Assembly: GCA_020059745.1 (NCBI GenBank)
Contig: JAGVBK010000002.1
Location: 104,301-168,300, forward strand
DNA from: Candidatus Shapirobacteria bacterium
Lineage (GTDB): Bacteria; Patescibacteriota; Microgenomatia; UM-FILTER-40-11
Direction of reading: 5' to 3'
Length of the DNA stretch: 64,000 bases
The notes below the pieces were generated by a model. That model was not told where the DNA came from. It saw only the letters and a list, made by a program, of their open reading frames with translations, and searched no databases. The position numbers were made by a program, and so were the translations under genes. How positions within the stretch are numbered: the first letter of the stretch is position 1; each line of letters begins with the position of its first letter. This document shows, piece by piece, positions 7,256 through 64,000 of this stretch.

Positions 7256-8062
7256 TTAATATTCGAAAACTTTTTTAAAAGAAGAAACCACTACCTTTCT
7301 GAATTGTGGCCTTATCTGATAAATATTCTTTAGATCATTAACTTTAATGGCAAACATTTCTTTGAAAGCTCTCAAAATATCCCTTACCAGGTTAACTTTA
7401 CTTGACTTACTTATATGTTTCCAAGTAACAGGCAGCTCGACAATTCTGTAATTAAGCTTGTTGCTGACATAAATTACTTCCGGATCCAGCCCCCATCTTT
7501 CTTGAGTCAATCTGGGAAAAACATCGCGACAGACTTGGTAAGAAAAAACCTTAAAGCCGCCGGTAAAATCAGCAATTTTAATTCCTAAAACAGTTTGGAG
7601 AATTTTACTGTGAACCGTGCCGATTATTTCCCTAACCATACTTCTTTTAACCAAGGAAATAGTTTGGGGAAGCTTTTTGCTGCCTACTAAAACTTCATAA
7701 CCTTTATGCATAAAGAGAGAAAATTCTTTAAGGTTTTCAAGAGGAATTGACATGTCGCCGTCTAAAAACATGCCAAAATCAGTATTTACCTCTTTTACTC
7801 CCTGCATGACCGCATATCCCCGGCCTTTGTTTAAGGGATAGGAAATAAGGAAAATTTCCGTTTGGTCAATAATATTTCCGGAGTACTGTCTTTGGAAATT
7901 TTTCAGTAAAGAAAGAGTTTTGTCTTTACTGCCGTCATCAACAAAAATAAGTTTTTCAATCTTAATGCTTTTTGGGCTTTTGTAATTGACAAGATAACCC
8001 AAAGTTTTTTTAAGCCTTTTTTCTTCATTATAGAGAGGGACAATGACAGTTAATGTTTTCAT
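7256..8062 (-). CDS. GT2 glycosyltransferase (polyprenol-phosphate sugar transferase-like)
   Basis: 268 aa. Contains VIVPLYNEE, VDDGSKDKT and a DGD motif, typical of dolichyl/undecaprenyl-phosphate glycosyltransferases. Confidence 0.8.
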   Translation of the reverse strand: MKTLTVIVPLYNEEKRLKKTLGYLVNYKSPKSIKIEKLIFVDDGSKDKTLSLLKNFQRQYSGNIIDQTEIFLISYPLNKGRGYAVMQGVKEVNTDFGMFLDGDMSIPLENLKEFSLFMHKGYEVLVGSKKLPQTISLVKRSMVREIIGTVHSKILQTVLGIKIADFTGGFKVFSYQVCRDVFPRLTQERWGLDPEVIYVSNKLNYRIVELPVTWKHISKSSKVNLVRDILRAFKEMFAIKVNDLKNIYQIRPQFRKVVVSSFKKVFEY

Positions 8063-8063
8063 C

Positions 8064-8279
8064 TTAAAACCCCTTTTCTTTCATGCACCTTTGGTATGAG
8101 TCCCAATCAGGGACACGGGCGCTGCTGCCGCCCTCAGGGTTCTCATAAGTATTGACGCCCACTGTCATACACCCCTGAACAGCATTGTTTTTTATCATTC
8201 TTTCCGATTGCCTGTATCCCAAAACCACCGCTCCAATAAGGGCGGCGCCGATTAAGATAGTTCCGATATCTTTTCTCAT
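8064..8279 (-). CDS. Small single-pass membrane protein, unknown function
   Basis: The internal Met (MRKDIGTILIGAALIGAVVLGY...) gives a 71-aa protein with one TM helix and two Cys. The longer 94-aa version has an unlikely N-terminus. Confidence 0.45.
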   Translation of the reverse strand: MRKDIGTILIGAALIGAVVLGYRQSERMIKNNAVQGCMTVGVNTYENPEGGSSARVPDWDSYQRCMKEKGF

Positions 8280-8403
8280 TTTTTCACCGATAAAAGCATA
8301 AAATAAATTTTTATACTTTAGTCGATGCGTAACCCGAAGAGTGTTCATTTACCTTATGAAGGTAAACTACTAACCCTCCGGGTTACGCGATCGGCATGCA
8401 ATG

Positions 8404-9549
8404 CTACTTGACAAGTCCCAGATACTGCTCCCGCCAGAATGTGGCTGCAATAGCCATTCCTTCCCACCCTACGGGAATTCTGGCTTTGGGATAGCTTGGG
8501 ATCAATATCAAGTTTGGGTCGGTCGGCACCTCCAGACGCTCTCCGTCGAACGGAAATTCGAACGGATTCCTGATGAAAAACGCGTCTTGGGGAGGTGCCT
8601 GCCAGTTGCCGTTGCCCAGATCGACGAGCCTGACACTCGGTGCAAGGCCGAATGTTGAGCGGATCCACGCTTCGTTCACCTGTGAAGGCGAAAAAGCGGG
8701 GGTCGCACTGGGAACGACGGGCGTTGGGGCAGCTAGCGGAACTGGTGTCTGAGTTGGCACAACTTGGGCTACCAAAGTAGCTGTCGGCTGTACCAAACTT
8801 GAGACCTGACCGATTTGACCAACTGAGGTCACAGGGATCACGCCAGTGATCCTGTGATACTCGTCAATACTGAAAGGCCTGAACGTGATCCCCTGTACAG
8901 GACCACACCAACCAGCAGGAATTCCTGACCCAACTGCTTCTGGGGGAAAACCCTCTTCTAGGGTCCTCCCGTGCAACTCCCGCTGTCTGCGGTCCGCCAT
9001 CCAGCCATCTTGCCGGAAAGGAGTGAAGTTACAAACCTCAATGGAAACAATATTCCCAAAGAGGTCTTTCTCCTCCGGCACCTTCCAGCTCCATGGCTCA
9101 CCCCTAGCCCTGCTAACCTCGCTGGGCTCAATGGACGGCTGAGCCTGTCTCCTTGTTGCAAGGATAACAAACTCATCCACTGACCTTGGCCAATCCTCCA
9201 TGACCTCAAGGCCTAGAACCCTGATGTCGTCCAGAGTCTGACCGCCAGTCAGAGTAAGCCCGAAAGCCTGAACCCTAGGTGACGGTGCCATTGCAACCGT
9301 CGGTTCGGATTGAACAGCCTCCTGACCGGGAGTCGGAGTCACAAGGACCTCAACAACCCGAGTCACTTCGACCGGAACCTCCTTCTCGACAACGACGGTC
9401 TCCTTGACCACCTGAGGGACGACCCTGGTGACCTCGACCGGGACCGTCTCCTTGACGATCTCGGGCGTTGGTGTCAGAGCACTTTCCCTGAGCGCACAAC
9501 CCGTGATCATCACGATAGCCACCATTACAACCAGGAATATCATCTTCAT
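8404..9549 (-). CDS. Lipoprotein, unknown function (GC-rich island)
   Basis: 381 aa. It has a signal peptide with lipobox MITGC and an AGGAGG-type SD upstream. An N-terminal tandem KETV.VEVTRVV repeat and Pro/Thr linkers are present. I recognised no family. Confidence 0.6.
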   Translation of the reverse strand: MKMIFLVVMVAIVMITGCALRESALTPTPEIVKETVPVEVTRVVPQVVKETVVVEKEVPVEVTRVVEVLVTPTPGQEAVQSEPTVAMAPSPRVQAFGLTLTGGQTLDDIRVLGLEVMEDWPRSVDEFVILATRRQAQPSIEPSEVSRARGEPWSWKVPEEKDLFGNIVSIEVCNFTPFRQDGWMADRRQRELHGRTLEEGFPPEAVGSGIPAGWCGPVQGITFRPFSIDEYHRITGVIPVTSVGQIGQVSSLVQPTATLVAQVVPTQTPVPLAAPTPVVPSATPAFSPSQVNEAWIRSTFGLAPSVRLVDLGNGNWQAPPQDAFFIRNPFEFPFDGERLEVPTDPNLILIPSYPKARIPVGWEGMAIAATFWREQYLGLVK

Positions 9550-10285: not shown

Positions 10286-11068
10286 CTACTCGAACCAAAC
10301 CACTGCGGTCCAGACCTTAACGTGCCCCGGCCCCTTGAATTTGTCTAGGTTTTCCCCAAGAATTGGGTTCCACCCGGTGACCAAGGCATTCTCGGGCACA
10401 GCGAGCATGACAGGGTTTCCACCACTGTTATAGTCAAAGCTGCACCCATCCTTCCGAAGGGCCCAGACACCACCAGTGACAACATTGGCTTGAAGCCAAT
10501 CGATGCTTGGGCAACCCTCGGGTTGGTCCGGAATCGGGAGCCTCGGCAAAGGCGGATTGAACACCACTGGGAGAAACAAAATACTTTCTCCAGGTGTCGG
10601 AACCACCGTTGGCTCGGCGGTTGCCATTGCAGTTGGTTCCGGCGTGGCGGTCGGCGTTGCCGTTACAGTTGGTACTGTAACCGTTGGCTCGGCCGTTGCC
10701 GTGGCGCTCTGTGGCTCAATCCACAGAACCCCGTCCCAAAATTCTCCCGAACCAGGTCCTTCCACCAGAAGGTCTTTTTGGCCCTCCGGCTCCGGCCGCG
10801 GATCCCAACCAGTCATCTTGGATCCACCCGCGGGGACAACGAGCAAGATCGGCTCCTCAAACGGGCCTCTTCCGCTCTCGAAAACAAAATCACAACCTTC
10901 GTCGGGCCCGACTTTCCACATCGAGAGTTCACCCCCGATGTTTTCCGCGACCCACTCGAGATCCGGGCACTCTTGCGGGGGTTCCGGAATGGCAACCTCC
11001 GCTGAGAGCTGGAACGGCAAAACTGCCGCCAGCGCGACCACAACCGCGAGTACAAGACTGCGCTTCAT
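10286..11068 (-). CDS. Secreted protein with internally duplicated 2-Cys domain (GC-rich island)
   Basis: The start is taken at MKRSLVLAVVVALAAV (signal peptide), with an AGGAGGGG SD. Two homologous ~85-aa domains (CPDLEW...GCDF...TGWDP and CPSIDW...GCSF...TGWNP) are joined by a Thr/Pro/Ala linker. Confidence 0.6.
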   Translation of the reverse strand: MKRSLVLAVVVALAAVLPFQLSAEVAIPEPPQECPDLEWVAENIGGELSMWKVGPDEGCDFVFESGRGPFEEPILLVVPAGGSKMTGWDPRPEPEGQKDLLVEGPGSGEFWDGVLWIEPQSATATAEPTVTVPTVTATPTATPEPTAMATAEPTVVPTPGESILFLPVVFNPPLPRLPIPDQPEGCPSIDWLQANVVTGGVWALRKDGCSFDYNSGGNPVMLAVPENALVTGWNPILGENLDKFKGPGHVKVWTAVVWFE

Positions 11069-11216
11069 TTCCCCTCCTGGGATCATAAGGATGGCAAATA
11101 CTCAATGTGCTTCTGGTCTCACCAGCCAGATTGGCGCTTACGCCTTTCTAGTTATTGAAACCAGAAAAGGAAATTGAACTCCTAGTTTCCTTTCCCGGCT
11201 TCAACCGGAAACTTCT

Positions 11217-17300: not shown

Positions 17301-17645
17301 TTTGAGAAAACAAGGGAAAACGGATGGGGTCGGGGGAAGGCAACAATACATCAAGTGGTTTTAAAAACCCACAAAATGTATCTTTACCTTCCCGGGTTCC
17401 CCTTACCCTCCCGTTTGACGGGACCGACAGTTGCTTCTCTTTGGTTTGGTAAAAATACACCTTGCCTGGAGAAGCTGGCCCGCTTTAAGCGGAGCCAAAG
17501 GAAGTAGTCCGAGGATATCTGCGAATAAAAGGCAAAATCCCTCCTTTCCTTCAATCACTGCAGTGGCGGATACAACGCCGGGTCGGGGTAACCAAGCTTT
17601 TGTCTTTTGGGTCAGCTTGGTTTTTTAATCCGTTTTCCCTTTTAA
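17273..17645 (-). ncRNA. Structured ncRNA candidate 1 (unclassified)
   Basis: A 14-bp perfect closing helix (17312-17325 AAGGGAAAACGGAT with 17628-17641 ATCCGTTTTCCCTT) encloses about 300 nt that is visibly GC-richer and has several internal hairpins. A terminator follows immediately on the minus strand. The 5' end and promoter are uncertain. Confidence 0.5.
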
Positions 17646-17744
17646 AAGAACAAAACATTCTTACCTTTGCTTATAAAGATAAGAAAAATGACACTAAATA
17701 AATGCTATATAATTTTTTATTTTCTGTCAATATACACCTTGTGC

Positions 17745-48792: not shown

Positions 48793-50100
48793 TTAGCTTG
48801 TCTTGTTTCTTAATTGCCTGAATTTGTCTTGAACTTCAATTGGTAAATCCTCTGTGGCTTTCCCCTTCTCACTGACCATGATTCCGTAGATAGTGTCAAG
48901 CACTTCCTCTGGCCTTAACTCACGACCCCCGGTTTCAAAAGATGAACGCCTTAAAATTGCGTATTCAAGTTCCAAAAGATTTTGAGCATTTTCTAAAGTA
49001 GGATTTCCTCCCCTTTTTACTGCTCTTGCCCTTAATTCAACTACTTTATCCCTCAGTCTTTCTCCATTGGTAATATAGTTTTTATCTAGCTCTCCGCTTA
49101 GATAACCTTTTATTCTATTAACCAAATCCTCTGTTTTATAAGTAAAATTATGGCTGCCCATAATTGTCCTTCCTTTAAGTGCTTCTAAAAGTTCAGAAAA
49201 AAGCTGTGAAGAAGCAATGCTTGGTTTTTCCCGAGATTTTTCTTCAGGCTTTAAAGCCGGCTCAGCCCGATATCCTGTCACTTCGGTGGCAACAACAGTA
49301 ATGTCATCTTTTTTTGCCCTGAAATGGCGGCTTTGCGCTCTTTCCAGAGCTTTTTCCACCAACCTTTTTGCCACTTGTTTTGAATTCCCAAAAAGAGCTT
49401 CTTTAATTTCCTCATCAGTCAAGTTATCGGAAACTCCGTCAGTTACCCCGATAATCCTGTCTCCGGGTTTAAGAGCCAAGACAAAAATATCAGGAAGTTC
49501 TTCTTCGTCGCTGCCAAGATAGCGAACCAGCTTATTTCTGTGCTTGTAAAAAAGACCCACCTCCGGTCTAAGATTTTTAAGTTCCGACTCATTTTTTGCC
49601 TGGTCAACCGCCTTAGCTTCGCTTGGAGTTATTTTCCCGGCATCAACCATTTCATTTAAAGGATTGTGGTCTTTGGTTATTTGTTCAAGCCTTCCGTCCC
49701 GGTAAAGGTAAACCCGGCTGTCTCCAATATTCCCAATTACTACTTTTTTTCCTCCTTCCACAAAAAGAGCAGCAACCGCAGTTGTTCCAGACTCAGGAAC
49801 TCCATTTCTAACACCTCTTCCTGCTTCAATAAAAGCTTCCTCTAAAGTCCTTCTTGCCTCAAACTCATTGCTGTTAGAAGAAAAACCTTTTAGTTTTCTG
49901 GAAAAGACCAAATTCGCCCTTGAGGCAGCCTCTTTCCCTCCTGACATGCCTCCCATACCATCAAAAACAGCAAAATTGCTTCCTTCGGTCCAAAAAGAGT
50001 CTTCGCCCTTTTCCGCCCTGTTTTCAACAGCCAAAGTAGCAGAAAGCCTTTGGCTGGTTTCCGGAGGTCGGGCAAATTCCTGAAAAGATTGGTCGCTCAT
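48793..50100 (-). CDS. PP2C-family Ser/Thr phosphatase with ~150-aa C-terminal extension
   Basis: Contains FAVFDGMGG, GDSRVYL and TDGVSDNL motifs in the N-terminal ~270 aa. The C-terminal part is unassigned. Confidence 0.8.
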   Translation of the reverse strand: MSDQSFQEFARPPETSQRLSATLAVENRAEKGEDSFWTEGSNFAVFDGMGGMSGGKEAASRANLVFSRKLKGFSSNSNEFEARRTLEEAFIEAGRGVRNGVPESGTTAVAALFVEGGKKVVIGNIGDSRVYLYRDGRLEQITKDHNPLNEMVDAGKITPSEAKAVDQAKNESELKNLRPEVGLFYKHRNKLVRYLGSDEEELPDIFVLALKPGDRIIGVTDGVSDNLTDEEIKEALFGNSKQVAKRLVEKALERAQSRHFRAKKDDITVVATEVTGYRAEPALKPEEKSREKPSIASSQLFSELLEALKGRTIMGSHNFTYKTEDLVNRIKGYLSGELDKNYITNGERLRDKVVELRARAVKRGGNPTLENAQNLLELEYAILRRSSFETGGRELRPEEVLDTIYGIMVSEKGKATEDLPIEVQDKFRQLRNKTS

Positions 50101-50146
50101 CTTAGACCATGATATTTTGTTTTTTCTTTCAATGCAACCAATACCA

Positions 50147-50176
50147 TTGCCAAGAAATAAATATAAATGCTATAAT
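50147..50176 (+). promoter_or_regulatory. Strong sigma-70-type promoter (extended -10)
   Basis: TTGCCA (50147-50152), an 18-nt spacer, then TGcTATAAT (50168-50176). Confidence 0.6.
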
Positions 50177-50248
50177 ATTAATAGCTTATAGTATTCATTG
50201 TCTGATAGCCGTTGCCGTCGTCTTCTTCCCCCAGGAAAAGGAGGCATC

Positions 50249-50434
50249 GTGGCAAAGCCGGCAAGAAAGGGCAATGGATCAAAGCCTCGGGGTGAAAAGG
50301 GTCAAGCCAGGCACAGAAGCGCCAGGCCAGTCATTCCTGATCCTTCTCCACTCGTGGCAGGCGGAGACTACAGTGACGAGAATTTGTTGGCAAGAGCCGA
50401 AAGGGGCCTGCTACATTCTCTGCACATCACCTGA
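50249..50434 (+). CDS. Candidate 61-aa basic protein in a GC-rich patch (or part of an ncRNA)
   Basis: AAGGAGG (50238-50244) lies 4 nt upstream of GTG 50249. The product is MAKPARKGNGSKPRGEKGQARHRSARPV.... The unit has its own promoter and terminator. No family recognised. Confidence 0.35.
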   Translation: MAKPARKGNGSKPRGEKGQARHRSARPVIPDPSPLVAGGDYSDENLLARAERGLLHSLHIT

Positions 50435-50451
50435 AGTCCCCCCTCCCCACC

Positions 50452-50505
50452 GGTCCGGTGTTGAAGCGCTGCTTGCAGCCCTTCTTTTTTTCACCGGACC
50501 TTTTT
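50452..50505 (+). terminator. Terminator-like hairpin
   Basis: GGUCCGGUG (50452-50460) pairs with CACCGGACC (50492-50500) and is followed by UUUUU. The loop is unusually long. Confidence 0.45.
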
Positions 50506-50559
50506 CTGGCTTTCTTCTACTCCCTTGCTTTTAAAACACTTTCATGCTATTATTTTTTA

Positions 50560-50668
50560 AGCCTTAAGACAGTAAGTGTCTGGTGAAACCGGACTTAATT
50601 TCTTACCGAGGGGACAAATTAATCTTTTGTTTTTGCCTCGGTAAAGCCGGGGTTTTTATTTTTTAAGG
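50560..50668 (+). promoter_or_regulatory. rplJ (L10) leader with terminator/antiterminator alternative
   Basis: UACCGAGG (50604-50611) can pair with CCUCGGUA (50636-50643). Alternatively, CCUCGG (50636-50641) pairs with CCGGGG (50647-50652), which is followed by a U-run just before the rplJ SD. Confidence 0.5.
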
Positions 50669-50674
50669 AGTAAA

Positions 50675-51193
50675 ATGAAAAAACAAGATAAATTTTTTGA
50701 AGTTGACAACTTAAATGCAAAAATTAAGGACGCCAAATCAGTGGCCCTGGTTGACTACCGCGGCATTACCGTCTCTCAGGCTACTGCTTTAAGAGAAAAA
50801 GTAAAAGAGGCCGGCGGTGAGCTTCAGGTTGTAAAAAATAACCTTTTCTTTAGGGCCTTAAGACAAAACGACTACGAAGTTGAAAAAGAAAAACTTGAAG
50901 GCCCTTCCCTTGCCCTTTTTGCCAACGCTGATGAGATTACTCCCCTTAAAGCTTTAGTTTCATTTGCCAAAACATCAGGACTTCTACCTTTTAAAATTGG
51001 TTTTATGGAAGGAAGAGTTCTTTCTGAGGCTGAACTTAACCGCTTTGCCAATCTTCCCAGCAAACAGGAACTGCAAGCCAAACTCGTCGGCATGTTGGCA
51101 AGTCAGCCCGGCCGTTTGGTTTATGCTTTAAACTACAACTTACAAAGACTGGCTTTAGTATTAAATGCTGTAAAAGAGAAAAAACAGCAATAA
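50675..51193 (+). CDS. rplJ: 50S ribosomal protein L10
   Basis: 172 aa with a [18 protein letters not shown] motif. It is followed by rplL. Confidence 0.9.
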
Positions 51194-51230
51194 TTGTTTA
51201 AAATTTAAAATTTTTGTAAGGAGGTGTAAA

Positions 51231-51641
51231 ATGGCAGACGAAGCTCAAGTATCCAAAAATGTTGAAGGCTTAATTTCAGAAATCGAAAAACTGTCTGTTT
51301 TAGAACTGGCAGATCTAGTCAAGGCTTTAGAGGATAAATTCGGTGTTAGTGCCGCTCCTGTAGCCATGGCTGCTCCTGCGGGCGCTGCTCCCGCTGCTGG
51401 CGGCGAAGCTGCTCCAGCCGAGGAACAAACCACTTTCAATGTGGTTATTGCCAACGCAGGCGCCAACAAAATTTCGGTTATTAAGGCTGTAAGAGAAATC
51501 AACCAAAACCTGGGTTTAAAAGAAGCTAAGGATTTAGTTGAAGCAGCCCCGAAAGAAGTCTTAACCGGGGTTAACAAGAGTACCGCTGAAGAAGCCAAGA
51601 AAAAACTCGAGGCAGCAGGCGCTACTGTTGAATTAAAATAA
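51231..51641 (+). CDS. rplL: 50S ribosomal protein L7/L12
   Basis: It has an Ala-rich hinge and the C-terminal domain [20 protein letters not shown]... Confidence 0.95.
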
Positions 51642-51656
51642 GGCTAAGCACACCTT

Positions 51657-51685
51657 AAAAATCCCCTCTTTCTGAGGGGATTTTT
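51657..51685 (+). terminator. rplL intrinsic terminator
   Basis: AAAAUCCCCUC-UUUCU-GAGGGGAUUUUU. Confidence 0.8.
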
Positions 51686-51799
51686 AGTGGAAAAACTACA
51701 AAAATTGTAATTGCTTGACAAGCGGTTGTAGAATACATCTATAGAAAAAAGCTAAAAAGAGGCTAAAGCGCTTCTTAACAGCTTATTTTTTGTTCTTTG

Positions 51800-52617
51800 A
51801 AAAGGGAGACAGAGTTGAAGACCGAAAGGCGAAGGCACAAAACCTTCGGCTTTCGGTCTTCAGCATTCAAGATAGCCAAAAATGGCAGAAAGGAGAACTT
51901 GGCTACGGATTAGTCGATCCGCCTTACTCACCCCCAGGAGAAAAAAGTGAGAGTAGTTACGGTCGGTTCGGCAAAGGTAGTTCCAACTATCGGGGAAGAG
52001 ATGTTCCCAATGGTCGGCTTCGGACTGGGAGTCCAAACGTCAATGGGAGGCTGTTTCGGACTTAGGTCTGACCACGATGAGTCGGTTCTTGTCTGGAACA
52101 GCCAAAAGAAGCTTCCCGAGCTGCTTGAAGAAGCAGGTATTCCCTTCGTGCAGACGGGGAAAGAGTTCACAACTACTGTTCCCGGCTGCAGGGAGACTGT
52201 AATCAAATCTGGAGAAAGATTGTCTTGGAGCTTCCCGATGCCCACCCTGACAAGCGGACACCCAAAGTTCGCATTCCTTCCCCAACCCCGGTTCGCACGC
52301 ATTGGAGAAGGAAGAAGACAATACTACCTGATCAAGCTTCTCGGCGCACTGGTCGGCACCCAAGAGGCCATTGTATGCCTCGAGTTCGGACAGTTCAGCT
52401 CAAGTTACAAGAACTTGTGCTACAAGTTCGAGCTCAAGGGGGTGGTGGCAATCGGACCAAAAGAACATCTTTTCTGGCAGTTTGAACTACCCCCAGAAGA
52501 AAGCTTTGATTCTCTTCTCAAGAGAATCAAGCTTTACTAGATCCTGGCTCGCGTGCCAATTTTCCCCCAGCCTTGCGGCACGCGAGCCTTCCGTTTGGCA
52601 CTCTCTGTCTCCCTTTT
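51800..52617 (+). other. Inverted-repeat-bounded GC-rich cassette carrying one orphan gene
   Basis: A 15-bp perfect IR: AAAAGGGAGACAGAG (51800-51814) with CTCTGTCTCCCTTTT (52603-52617). Inside are a ~20-bp hairpin (51816-51862), the CDS, and a 12-bp hairpin (52546-52588). Confidence 0.6.
51947..52540 (+). CDS. Hypothetical 197-aa protein (orphan)
   Basis: GTG start with AGGAG 6 nt upstream. The amino-acid composition is balanced. No motif I recognise. Confidence 0.55.
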   Translation: MRVVTVGSAKVVPTIGEEMFPMVGFGLGVQTSMGGCFGLRSDHDESVLVWNSQKKLPELLEEAGIPFVQTGKEFTTTVPGCRETVIKSGERLSWSFPMPTLTSGHPKFAFLPQPRFARIGEGRRQYYLIKLLGALVGTQEAIVCLEFGQFSSSYKNLCYKFELKGVVAIGPKEHLFWQFELPPEESFDSLLKRIKLY

Positions 52618-52799
52618 GTAATTCTTCTATTTTCTTTCTCTTTTTTTTACTATAAAAACATCAATATATTTCAAAATGTCTAAAAGTATTTCACCCCTTT
52701 TATATCCTATTGACAACTTTTTAACTACTGTGATACTCTTTTGATTAGAAAAACATATTCTAAAGTTTAGTATTTTGAATTTCTCCCGAAAGGAGCTAT

Positions 52800-53015
52800 A
52801 TGCCTGATAAAAAGAATCTTAACCTGGATAATCTTCCCGACTTGCTTACTGTCCGCGAGGTAGCTGAAATTCTAAGAGTTTCTCCCCTAACCATTAAAAG
52901 ATGGGGCAAAAGAGGCAAGCTGCCGGCAATCAGAATCAATTCCAGAGGCGACAGAAGGTATAAAAAAGAAGCGGTCCTTTGGATGCTAGGTATTCAACCG
53001 AAAGACCAAATCTAA
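52800..53015 (+). CDS. Excisionase/MerR-type helix-turn-helix DNA-binding protein
   Basis: 71 aa. LLTVREVAEILRVSPLTIKRWGKRGKLPAIRI matches the excisionase-family HTH pattern. Confidence 0.65.
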   Translation: MPDKKNLNLDNLPDLLTVREVAEILRVSPLTIKRWGKRGKLPAIRINSRGDRRYKKEAVLWMLGIQPKDQI

Positions 53016-53089
53016 TTTTTAAAAAATTTGTTTCTTTTTAAAATCGAATAAACAGAGTTTGAAAGTTGTTTTTGCACAGTTTATAAAAA

Positions 53090-53872
53090 TTAAGAATTTA
53101 TTTTAAATTTTTCTCGAAATATTAACCAAGGAAACACAACTGTTGCCGTCCACACCCTTTTTAAGTGCCCCGGCTTTGTTAAACCTCGCCAAAGCCACTC
53201 TAAACCAATCTTCCGCATCAAAAAAGGCGCCCTCTTACTAAAACCCGTTAAAAAGTCAAGAGAGCCACCTATGCCGATAAACACTTTGGCGTTTATTTTT
53301 TCTTTATTGCCAATAATCCACTCTTCTTGCTTAACCATGCCGTGGCAAGCGAAAACAATTTTAAGCCCGCCTGCCGGATGGGCAGGTTTTAAATCTTGCC
53401 TGTCGGCAGACAGGTTTTCTATTTTAAATTCTAAGTTATCGAGGTTAACAAATTTGACCCGAGGGTACTTTTCAGATAACTTTTTAAAAAGAAACTCAGC
53501 TTCCCCTCTATCTCCTCTTCTGGCTCCGGCAATACCCACAGACCAGCCTTTACTATTAGCTGTTTCAAGTAAGCAGGAAACAAGATCAGCACCGCTTACT
53601 CTTTCTTTAACTTCCTTCCTAAATACTCTTGAAAAAAGAACCAAACCAAAACCGTCAGGAATGTTGATATCAGCCACTTTAAGGATTTCTTTGAATTTTA
53701 GGTTTTTTTGAGCTTCAACTAGAAATTCAGGATTAGGAGTAAAAATAATCAGGGGGGGCTTAGCCTCAAAACCTGGCTTTTCTTCAATTAACCCCTCAAT
53801 TTGGTCTAGCAAACTTGGCAGCTGAGTGCTATTTATGGGTACACCTAGAATATTAGCTATATTTCGGCTCAT
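53090..53872 (-). CDS. WecB/TagA/CpsF-family glycosyltransferase
   Basis: Contains PDGFGLV, GIGGSLDFLTG...RAP and GLEWLWR motifs. Confidence 0.8.
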   Translation of the reverse strand: MSRNIANILGVPINSTQLPSLLDQIEGLIEEKPGFEAKPPLIIFTPNPEFLVEAQKNLKFKEILKVADINIPDGFGLVLFSRVFRKEVKERVSGADLVSCLLETANSKGWSVGIAGARRGDRGEAEFLFKKLSEKYPRVKFVNLDNLEFKIENLSADRQDLKPAHPAGGLKIVFACHGMVKQEEWIIGNKEKINAKVFIGIGGSLDFLTGFSKRAPFLMRKIGLEWLWRGLTKPGHLKRVWTATVVFPWLIFREKFKINS

Positions 53873-63477: not shown

Positions 63478-63630
63478 CTTTCTCCTCTTCTATTTCCATT
63501 TAGAGAAAGTTGTGTTATAATTTCTGCTCAGATACCCTGACTTTGTCTAAGTTTCACCGTCTCTGGTTAACCTAGAGCACTAGGAAAACTCACAGAGCTC
63601 TAGGGGCCCGAGAGGAGGTGAAATTTTTAA

Positions 63631-63909
63631 ATGGCATATCAGGATCAAGTTCTTAAATGTAAAGAATGCGGTAACGAGTTTACTTGGACCGCTTCTGAGC
63701 AGGAATTCTACGCCCAAAAAGGCTTTCAGAATGCTCCCCAAAGATGTCCTTCCTGCCGTCAGGCAAGAAAACAGCAATTAAGGGGTAACCGGCAAATGCA
63801 CACTGCTGTCTGCGCTCAATGTGGTAAAGAGTGTGAAGTTCCTTTTGAACCAAGAGGTGACAAACCGGTTTACTGCAACGAGTGTTACCAACAGCATAAA
63901 AACGGTTAA
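63631..63909 (+). CDS. Zinc-ribbon protein (CxxC-x17-CxxC type, duplicated)
   Basis: 92 aa. CKECG...F.W...EQ.FY..KGF...P.RCP.CR is followed by a second CAQCG...CNEC unit. Confidence 0.65.
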   Translation: MAYQDQVLKCKECGNEFTWTASEQEFYAQKGFQNAPQRCPSCRQARKQQLRGNRQMHTAVCAQCGKECEVPFEPRGDKPVYCNECYQQHKNG

Positions 63910-63927
63910 CACTTTATTGAAACAATA

Positions 63928-63955
63928 AACCCCGCCGACTCGGCGGGGTTTTTGG
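63928..63955 (+). terminator. Intrinsic terminator
   Basis: AACCCCGCCG-ACU-CGGCGGGGUUUUU. Confidence 0.8.
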
Positions 63956-64000
63956 TTGGCAAAAAAGGATTGAGGAGCGTTTTTCGCGGATAAGTTTTTT

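Follow-up and report, generated by a model that had tools for sequence, protein, structure and literature searches.

The stretch of DNA analyzed here comprises 64,000 nt of a Candidatus Shapirobacteria bacterium genome (GCA_020059745.1, contig JAGVBK010000002.1, positions 104,301 to 168,300 of the forward strand; hereafter, the window). Between rplL and a gene for a helix-turn-helix (HTH) protein, it carries a GC-rich cassette in which a single open reading frame (ORF) of 197 amino acids (aa) is bracketed by a perfect 15-nt inverted repeat (IR), with one hairpin just inside each arm. An earlier, sequence-only reading had proposed two explanations for this layout, namely, a small mobile or selfish cassette or an mRNA built for extreme stability. 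Comparison with related loci moderately favors a form of the second. According to this view, the cassette constitutes an accessory gene, lineage-restricted and rapidly evolving, in a small clade of Candidatus Microgenomates, and its mRNA appears to have been selected for near-full base pairing. The IR is probably a helix between the 5' and 3' untranslated regions (UTRs) that closes the transcript, and the guarding hairpins are probably UTR stem-loops located just inside it.

We compared the cassette with 29 related loci fetched via ribosomal protein L10. Orthologues from three lineages were available: the window, L012/L013, and L014. Both homologues are found at the identical locus, in the order rplJ, rplL, gene, HTH. 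A further relative, L015, was found in a metagenome scan with L10; L015 lacks the segment and is equal to L012 in closeness to the window (L10 86%). The features of the locus are the following.

51656-51686, + strand: rplL intrinsic terminator, a 13-bp perfect hairpin plus T run, upstream of and outside the element
51705-51734, + strand: promoter-like site P1, TTGTAA-18-TAGAAT, conserved in relatives
51736-52666, + strand: indel segment of 931 nt, in the window, L012/L013, and L014 and not in L015, delimited by alignment with L015
51757-51798, + strand: leader hairpin AAGAGGC/GCTTCTT (51757-51776) plus U-rich run, terminator- or attenuator-like, inside the indel
51790-51807, + strand: 18-nt motif TTGTTCTTTGAAAAGGGA, a U run into the start of the left IR arm; its only other exact copy in the window is at element C (described below)
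51800-51814, + strand: 5' arm of the putative closing helix (left IR), with core AAAAGGGAGACA invariant in three lineages
51816-51862, + strand: putative 5' UTR stem-loop, 20 bp
51883-51895, + strand: invariant, unpaired-looking 5' UTR motif TGGCAGAAAGGAG
51936-51949, + strand: Shine-Dalgarno sequence (SD) AGGAG and GTG start, in the invariant context CCCCCAGGAGAAAA
51947-52540, + strand: gene for the 197-aa orphan protein
52546-52588, + strand: putative 3' UTR stem-loop, 12 bp, with conserved loop motif CCTGCCTTG
52603-52617, + strand: 3' arm of the putative closing helix (right IR)
52618-52662, + strand: T-rich tail within the indel, which probably covers the transcript end
52710-52737, + strand: promoter of the HTH gene, TTGACA-16-GATACT with TG, in all relatives and outside the element

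The features reported for the cassette are real and exceed what chance would produce. A repeat finder recovered the perfect 15-nt IR (51800-51814/52603-52617), the 20-bp hairpin (51816-51862, 95% complementary), and the perfect 12-bp hairpin (52546-52588). The sequence AGGAG (51936-51940), followed after 6 nt by the GTG that opens the ORF at 51947-52540, is present as had been described, and so is the GC-rich interior (GC content of 0.49 to 0.54, versus 0.41 for the window). The 15-nt repeat has no further match in the 64 kb, even when 2 mismatches are allowed, and its 12-nt core is unchanged in the two additional lineages.

The relatives retain the whole arrangement. All three have P1, the leader hairpin and its U run, 26 invariant nucleotides that lead into the left arm, the core of the repeat (AAAAGGGAGACA/TGTCTCCCTTTT), the 5' hairpin, two invariant motifs (TGGCAGAAAGGA and ACCCCCAGGAGAAAA), the start codon, the 3' hairpin with its loop motif, the right arm, and the T-rich tail. 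The counterpart of P1 reads TTGGAA-18-TAAAAT in L012 and TTGAAA-18-TACAAT in the cassette-less L015. The sequence-only reading would have been undermined by relatives carrying the gene without the IR and hairpins; the opposite is seen, since the gene occurs together with both.

Where the helices differ among lineages, they differ in ways that preserve pairing. One pair of the leader hairpin is G·U, A-U, and G-C across the three lineages. In the 5' hairpin, there is a compensatory change from A-U to G-C, together with two G·U pairs that are valid on the + strand only and would be C·A mismatches on the - strand. A helix around the SD has five pairs altered on both sides. In the 3' hairpin of L012, GCG/CGC is swapped for CGTG/CACG and a perfect 13-bp stem is kept, while the extension of the closing helix, which reads GAG/CTC in the window, is (A)TAG/CTA in L012. 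These compensatory and G·U changes indicate that the helices are maintained as + strand RNA pairing. By partition-function folding, each of the three orthologues is predicted to form the closing helix with a pair probability of ~1.

The pairing extends well beyond the ends. Compared with shuffled sequences, the segment from repeat to repeat folds with z scores of -7.5 (window), -9.1 (L012), and -7.4 (L014); for the 828-nt stretch in the window, the value is -7.5 on the + strand and -6.7 on the - strand. The ORF alone gives -6.4, -5.5, and -4.3, respectively, and -6.9, -4.9, and -4.0 against synonymous-codon shuffles, which preserve both protein sequence and codon usage. The control genes rplJ and rplA have z scores of ~0, and eight 594-nt control stretches of the window range from +0.4 to -3.6. 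In a scan of the window in 500-nt bins (mean z of -1.0, standard deviation of 1.85), the cassette bins score -9.9 and -4.4. Minimum-free-energy folds have ~66 to 68% of bases paired, with closed ends, a branched shape, and 33 to 82 pairs spanning >300 nt. Because there are only three sequences and no common interior fold emerged from them, the excess folding is a statistical property rather than a defined structure. The GC content at third codon positions (GC3) is 0.57 to 0.58 in all three copies, versus ~0.38 in host genes, and it has stayed high even though synonymous sites are saturated, which points to selection on RNA structure rather than to recent foreign origin. A gene of foreign origin would be expected to have shifted toward the composition of its host. 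Two other bins of the scan, 8001-8500 and 63501-64000, are as extreme as the cassette (z of ~-7.1); the latter includes a terminator-like hairpin (63921-63957) and a 17-nt inverted repeat (63516/63694).

Such folding may raise the question of whether the cassette encodes a protein at all. A large structured noncoding RNA of ~820 nt, similar in size to GOLLD, ROOL, and HEARO, with an incidental ORF, would account for a GC-rich region in an AT-rich genome, for a closing helix that unites the ends, and for the extreme folding z of both the whole element and its interior. It would also fit the much better conservation of the UTR-like parts than of the ORF and the occurrence of the same 18-nt motif at a second RNA-like element with a closing stem in the window. 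Yet the ORF is open in three lineages, with its SD and start conserved, and its products align over their full length, show 3-base periodicity in their genes and nonsynonymous divergence (pN) below synonymous divergence (pS), and yield a moderately confident structure model. Moreover, Rfam 15 covariance models gave no match to the cassette at gathering score in a search of the window, and only noise at E<=10 over 50000-53100; the families without a match include GOLLD, ROOL, HEARO, OLE, raiA, ribozymes, and introns. We therefore regard this explanation as very improbable, while noting that an RNA with dual coding and structural functions may overlap with the closed mRNA that we favor.

The evidence for the protein is as follows. 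The GC content of the ORF by codon position is 0.55/0.41/0.57 (chi-square P = 0.003), and a stop-free run of its length is reached in only 1% of dinucleotide shuffles. When 1.84 billion representatives were searched exhaustively with HMMER, P0002 and P0003 (E of ~1e-14) proved to be true homologues; these two are the sole relatives of the protein among ~15 billion proteins. Alignment of each to the window protein spans the full length and shows 41 to 43% identity. The motifs LVWNS, IVCLEF, and LFWQFE are invariant in the three-protein alignment, and the window copy carries an insertion of ~24 aa (~52109-52205) relative to both homologues. Orthologue lengths range from 168 to 197 aa, with no hydrophobic helix. 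A word-indexed search of 5.8 billion clusters matched only the window protein itself, an identical protein is present in Candidatus Microgenomates bacterium GCA_003599075.1 and in JGI metagenomes, and a profile built from the three sequences retrieved the three family members and added none. The start codon lies at the equivalent position in each, GTG in the window and L012 and ATG in L014, and the SD is kept.

The protein evolves far more rapidly than its neighbors. For every orthologue pair, pN is lower than pS, and saturation has been reached at synonymous sites (pS of 0.75 to 0.83). Between the window and L012, pN is 0.39 for the cassette protein, versus 0.08 for rplJ and 0.03 for rplL. 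No known family claims it: Pfam, NCBIfam, PHROG, and PADLOC families give no match, in agreement with the sequence-only reading, which had seen no transposase or nuclease motif. The Pfam and NCBIfam searches likewise returned no housekeeping family, a match to which had been named as grounds for abandoning that reading, and a search of PDB sequences with the ORF gave nothing meaningful. AlphaFold2 on the three-sequence alignment produced an alpha/beta model (predicted local distance difference test [pLDDT] of 74.7, predicted template modeling score [pTM] of 0.73); the single-sequence prediction was useless (pLDDT of 34). Foldseek comparison of the better model with PDB and BFVD found nothing at E<=0.001 and no HUH or RuvC-like match. 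Given the homologues, the coding signals, and the lack of a family match, we conclude that the 197-aa ORF is a real gene and that its product belongs to a genuine orphan protein family with three known members. A toxin or defense (conflict-type) role could be imagined from the rapid evolution, patchy presence, and presumed tight control, but this is speculative, and the PADLOC defense models do not match the protein.

A second frame lies upstream of the gene. It opens with TTG at 51815, 6 nt past the SD-like left IR arm, and runs through the 5' hairpin (51815-51913; 32 aa). In L012 (3039-3173) it continues in frame into the main ORF, and this fusion accounts for the 218-aa gene call P0002; in L014 (59-85) it encodes 8 aa. 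Since its length varies in this way, it is not a conserved coding unit.

The presence of the segment in some relatives and not others brings back the first proposal: a small cassette of DNA, mobile or selfish and either site-specific or transposon-like, would have inserted between rplL and the HTH gene, and its repeat and hairpins would serve recombination. The segment occurs in the window, L012/L013, and L014, yet not in the equally close L015, which joins ...TTATACAATA directly to TATTTCAAACTG... In L015, P1 is immediately followed by ...ATATTTCAAACTG..., a conserved sequence located upstream of the HTH promoter. On either side of the 931-nt indel is an imperfect direct repeat, AATACAT (51732-51738)/AATATAT (52663-52669), with 4 nt exact (4 to 7 nt, AATA(Y)AT), and the GC content (0.52, versus 0.41 in the host) would also suit such a cassette. 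Nevertheless, this empty site also argues against an IR-bounded element, since it places the indel ends 64 nt to the left of the left arm and 46 to 49 nt to the right of the right arm. Thus, the repeat is internal and is not the terminus of an element, and the indel ends have no inverted repeat of their own. The flanking direct repeat fits target duplication and microhomology-mediated deletion in AT-rich DNA equally, the high GC3 persists despite saturated synonymous divergence, and the G·U and compensatory changes are those of + strand RNA pairing.

Searches for signs of mobility point the same way. The cassette is single copy at each locus and always at the same site, with no second copy of it or of its UTR modules elsewhere in the 64-kb window or in 30 related loci, and the L10-picked relatives L004 to L011 show no direct DNA similarity to it. 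No transposase, recombinase, or nuclease family was detected in the family searches. Phage and plasmid sequences gave no match to the protein by tblastn, and IMG/VR viral contigs gave none with the protein profile. Among viral contigs, the IR-plus-hairpin pattern had 3 chance matches, none with a right arm, and the 15-nt loop motif had random matches only. The segment is chromosomal in at least five independent assemblies. Like insertion sequences (IS), miniature inverted-repeat transposable elements (MITEs), and IS200/IS605 elements, the cassette has a perfect inverted repeat, subterminal hairpins, a patchy presence, and a short flanking direct repeat; unlike them, its repeats are internal to the indel, it is single copy and without transposase or TnpB, and its covariation is of the RNA type. 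Of the hallmarks of IS200/IS605, hairpins are present, but family searches of the ORF found no Y1 HUH TnpA or TnpB domain. The claim of an IR-bounded mobile cassette is therefore not borne out, and we consider mobility of this kind unlikely.

Some past gain or loss did occur, given that the segment is variably present and that the spacer hosts differing genes. For the right flank, 13 informative sites support the quartet ((window, L012),(L014, L015)), versus 5 and 3 for the alternatives; since the quartet is unrooted, gain and loss of the segment appear equally parsimonious. The length of the rplL-HTH spacer lies between 195 and 1390 nt, and the unrelated ORFs that it contains have a host-like GC content. 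Judging from these sequences, accessory genes in this group have a local hotspot here, downstream of the rplJL operon, a property that, together with an IS200/RAYT-like gene after rplL in one relative, would also suit a mobile cassette. In L004/L017, L007/L029, L008, L026, and L027, the spacer contains unrelated lineage-specific ORFs of 228 to 394 aa, and in other relatives it is nearly empty (195 to 474 nt). The IS200/RAYT-like sequence is a transposase gene fragment right after rplL in L006 (3854-4378), whose contig ends before any HTH gene. On both sides of the fragment lies an inverted repeat of ~70 nt, which takes in the rplL terminator hairpins, and the contig ends within the right copy of this repeat, so an assembly artifact is possible.

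A third alternative arises from the combination of self-pairing and a lone orphan ORF. The cassette, resident in DNA, could descend from or serve as template for an RNA agent of the viroid-like or Obelisk-like kind, ~0.8 kb long with a ~190-aa protein and possibly excised or circularized at the closing helix. Like Obelisks, which are viroid-like circular RNAs of ~1 kb that encode Oblin-1, it would yield a self-complementary RNA of ~1 kb with an orphan ORF of ~200 aa within the pairing; its size class, its lone ORF of ~170 to 197 aa, and its genome-wide self-pairing, ORF included, resemble the published Obelisk description. The cassette is accompanied by a second ORF, small and basic (element B, ~60 aa), and the motif common to the closing-helix feet of the cassette (element A) and element C could be a processing signal. 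Against this, the cassette is DNA encoded and occupies a fixed chromosomal locus in independent assemblies, whereas Obelisk-S.s is reported to be absent from the DNA genome of its host. There is no similarity to Oblin-1, and 1.84 billion representatives yielded just two homologues, both syntenic. The protein lacks the GYxDxG motif and an Arg-rich domain-A, and its model is alpha/beta rather than a helical globule. No ribozyme was matched, and the predicted fold is branched, not a single rod. Membership in the Oblin-1/Obelisk group was rejected on the basis of motif, fold, and DNA residence, and we deem descent from such an agent extremely improbable.

Of the two original proposals, then, the mRNA built for extreme stability is the one that fits the conserved helices, the covariation, the closing-helix probability of ~1, and the extreme folding, as far as sequence comparison can tell. 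In the scenario that we favor, transcription would start at P1 and pass the terminator-like leader hairpin, which suggests an extra transcriptional checkpoint between the promoter and the helix. The finished RNA would fold into a closed and compact form with both ends buried in duplex, and these buried ends would resist decay by both 5'-end-dependent and 3' exonucleolytic routes. The heavily paired coding region would throttle translation by restricting ribosome loading. The outcome would be a long-lived, tightly controlled message.

Precedents for end closure come from type I toxin mRNAs. In hok of plasmid R1 and aapA/IsoA of Helicobacter pylori, a long-distance interaction joining the 5' end to the 3' end gives a very stable, translationally inert mRNA that is activated by 3' processing (PMC6733600). 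As in those mRNAs, the cassette has a helix joining its 5' and 3' ends (12 to 15 bp, conserved in three lineages, probability of ~1), conserved UTR hairpins, complementary CU-rich and purine-rich elements, and, presumably, tight control. However, hok and aapA mRNAs are 150 to 400 nt long and encode hydrophobic peptides of <60 aa, while the cassette RNA would be ~800 to 900 nt and encodes a soluble-looking protein of 168 to 197 aa. Its 3' arm does not consistently mask the SD, and no antisense RNA gene was identified in a promoter scan of 51500-53100, where the sole - strand promoter-like site (51732-51704) lies upstream of the cassette and reads away from it. A type I toxin identity was rejected on account of the excessive size of the product and the lack of a known antisense RNA.

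The helix also resembles processing stems. RNase III-type processing stems flank rRNA and other stable RNAs. In a similar manner, the cassette repeat brackets a GC-rich structured RNA in an AT-rich genome, and the motif at its foot recurs at element C. By analogy with rRNA operons, the closing helix could be a processing site for a double-strand RNase, although the bracketed RNA is here an mRNA, the helix is 12 to 15 bp, and cleavage is hypothetical.

Several points weigh against a closed, stable mRNA. The transcript ends, the effects on stability and translation, and any processing are all inferred. Given the terminator-like hairpin between P1 and the helix, there is uncertainty about the true promoter and 5' end. 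Since the 12-nt core of the closing helix is invariable, the core itself gives no covariation evidence, and a consensus fold from the three sequences recovered the end helices only, with the interior in disagreement. The predicted probability that the SD (AGGAG) is unpaired is 0.82, 0.26, and 0.35 in the window, L012, and L014, respectively, and is unchanged by 3' truncation. Sequestration of the SD by the closing helix or the 3' end was dropped, as these predictions disagree among orthologues; because masking is inconsistent, the resemblance to hok and aapA is claimed for end closure only. Finally, the absence of the segment from one close relative, together with the short direct repeat, leaves room for some mobility.

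A ribosomal protein L10 leader (RF00557, 51.8 bits) is found at 50545-50667, directly 5' of rplJ, which indicates that the rplJL operon is of the usual kind. The sequence-only reading had placed the cassette immediately after the rplL terminator, where rpoB and rpoC follow in most bacteria. It does lie downstream of the terminator (51656-51686) but does not abut it, since the promoter-like site and the leader hairpin intervene. Likewise, rpoB and rpoC are indeed missing after rplL, but this is no peculiarity of the cassette locus: in 16 of the 29 L10-fetched loci, the same HTH gene comes next after rplL, and thus the lack of rpoBC at this position is normal for the group. The remaining loci are either more distant or on contigs that end before the HTH gene. 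The HTH gene had been described as excisionase-type. Among relatives, both those that carry the cassette and those that lack it, this gene shows at least 90% identity; therefore, it is neither the excisionase of the cassette nor a marker of mobility. In L014, an extra GC-rich insert of ~120 nt (790-900) is located between the T-rich tail and the HTH promoter, and it is found in neither the window nor L012 or L015.

Two further elements of the window share features with the cassette.

50171-50545, + strand: element B, a GC-rich (0.57 to 0.60) mini-gene between a PP2C-like gene and the L10 leader; in L012, 1265-1641
17312-17641, - strand: element C, ~330 nt, GC-rich and ORF-poor, with a perfect 14-bp closing helix followed by an intrinsic terminator

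Element B has a TATAAT-like promoter, a strong SD (AAGGAGG) and GTG at 50249, and a terminator-like 3' hairpin. Its ORF (50249-50434) encodes a basic orphan peptide of ~61 aa. Compared with L012, element B is 74% identical in nucleotide sequence and its peptide 43% identical, a divergence equal to that of the cassette protein. It occurs in L012 and not in L015 and is thus present or absent together with the cassette. An initiation-region motif, CUUCUU-CCCCC-AGGA(G)AAAAG, also written CCCCCAGGA(G)AAA, is common to element B and the cassette.

Element C is probably an undescribed structured RNA. Its closing helix is formed by AAGGGAAAACGGAT and ATCCGTTTTCCCTT, its folding z score is -8.1, and it has no Rfam match. 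The 18-nt motif TTGTTCTTTNAAAAGGGA that runs into the 5' arm of the closing helix has exactly two copies in the window, one at the cassette and one at element C (17636-17653, - strand), which suggests a common signal at the foot of closing helices in this organism. One could go further and suppose that elements A, B, and C form an undescribed class of closed RNA modules in Microgenomates, with ends joined by a helix and a common foot motif (UUGUUCUUUNAAAAGGGA) recognized by a dedicated activity for excision, end protection, or circularization; element A would then be a large dual-function RNA, structural as well as coding, or a domesticated viroid-like replicon. We consider this extension quite unlikely. 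Elsewhere in the window, two GC-rich ORFs on the - strand, 8404-9549 (381 aa) and 10286-11086 (266 aa), have a GC3 of ~0.6, versus ~0.38 in the host. Their N termini are signal-peptide-like and their linkers are rich in Thr and Pro, which gives them the look of secreted proteins acquired horizontally.

To date, end-to-end closure of mRNA has been elucidated chiefly for very small type I toxin messages and for genes of RNA phages. If our interpretation is true, the cassette would offer an exceptionally clear example from nature of a bacterial mRNA of ordinary size (~0.8 to 0.9 kb, encoding a protein of ~190 aa) selected for near-complete self-pairing, with a conserved 5'-3' closing helix and an elevated GC3 held across lineages whose synonymous sites are saturated. 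The same regulatory principle of end closure would thereby extend to a larger gene in reduced-genome bacteria of the candidate phyla radiation. There is also a lesson for the scanning of genomes: an inverted repeat around a GC-rich island may be the closing helix of an RNA and not the end of a transposon, and the empty site in a relative is what separates the two. Overall, the locus indicates a new orphan protein family, along with two nearby elements that may be linked to it.

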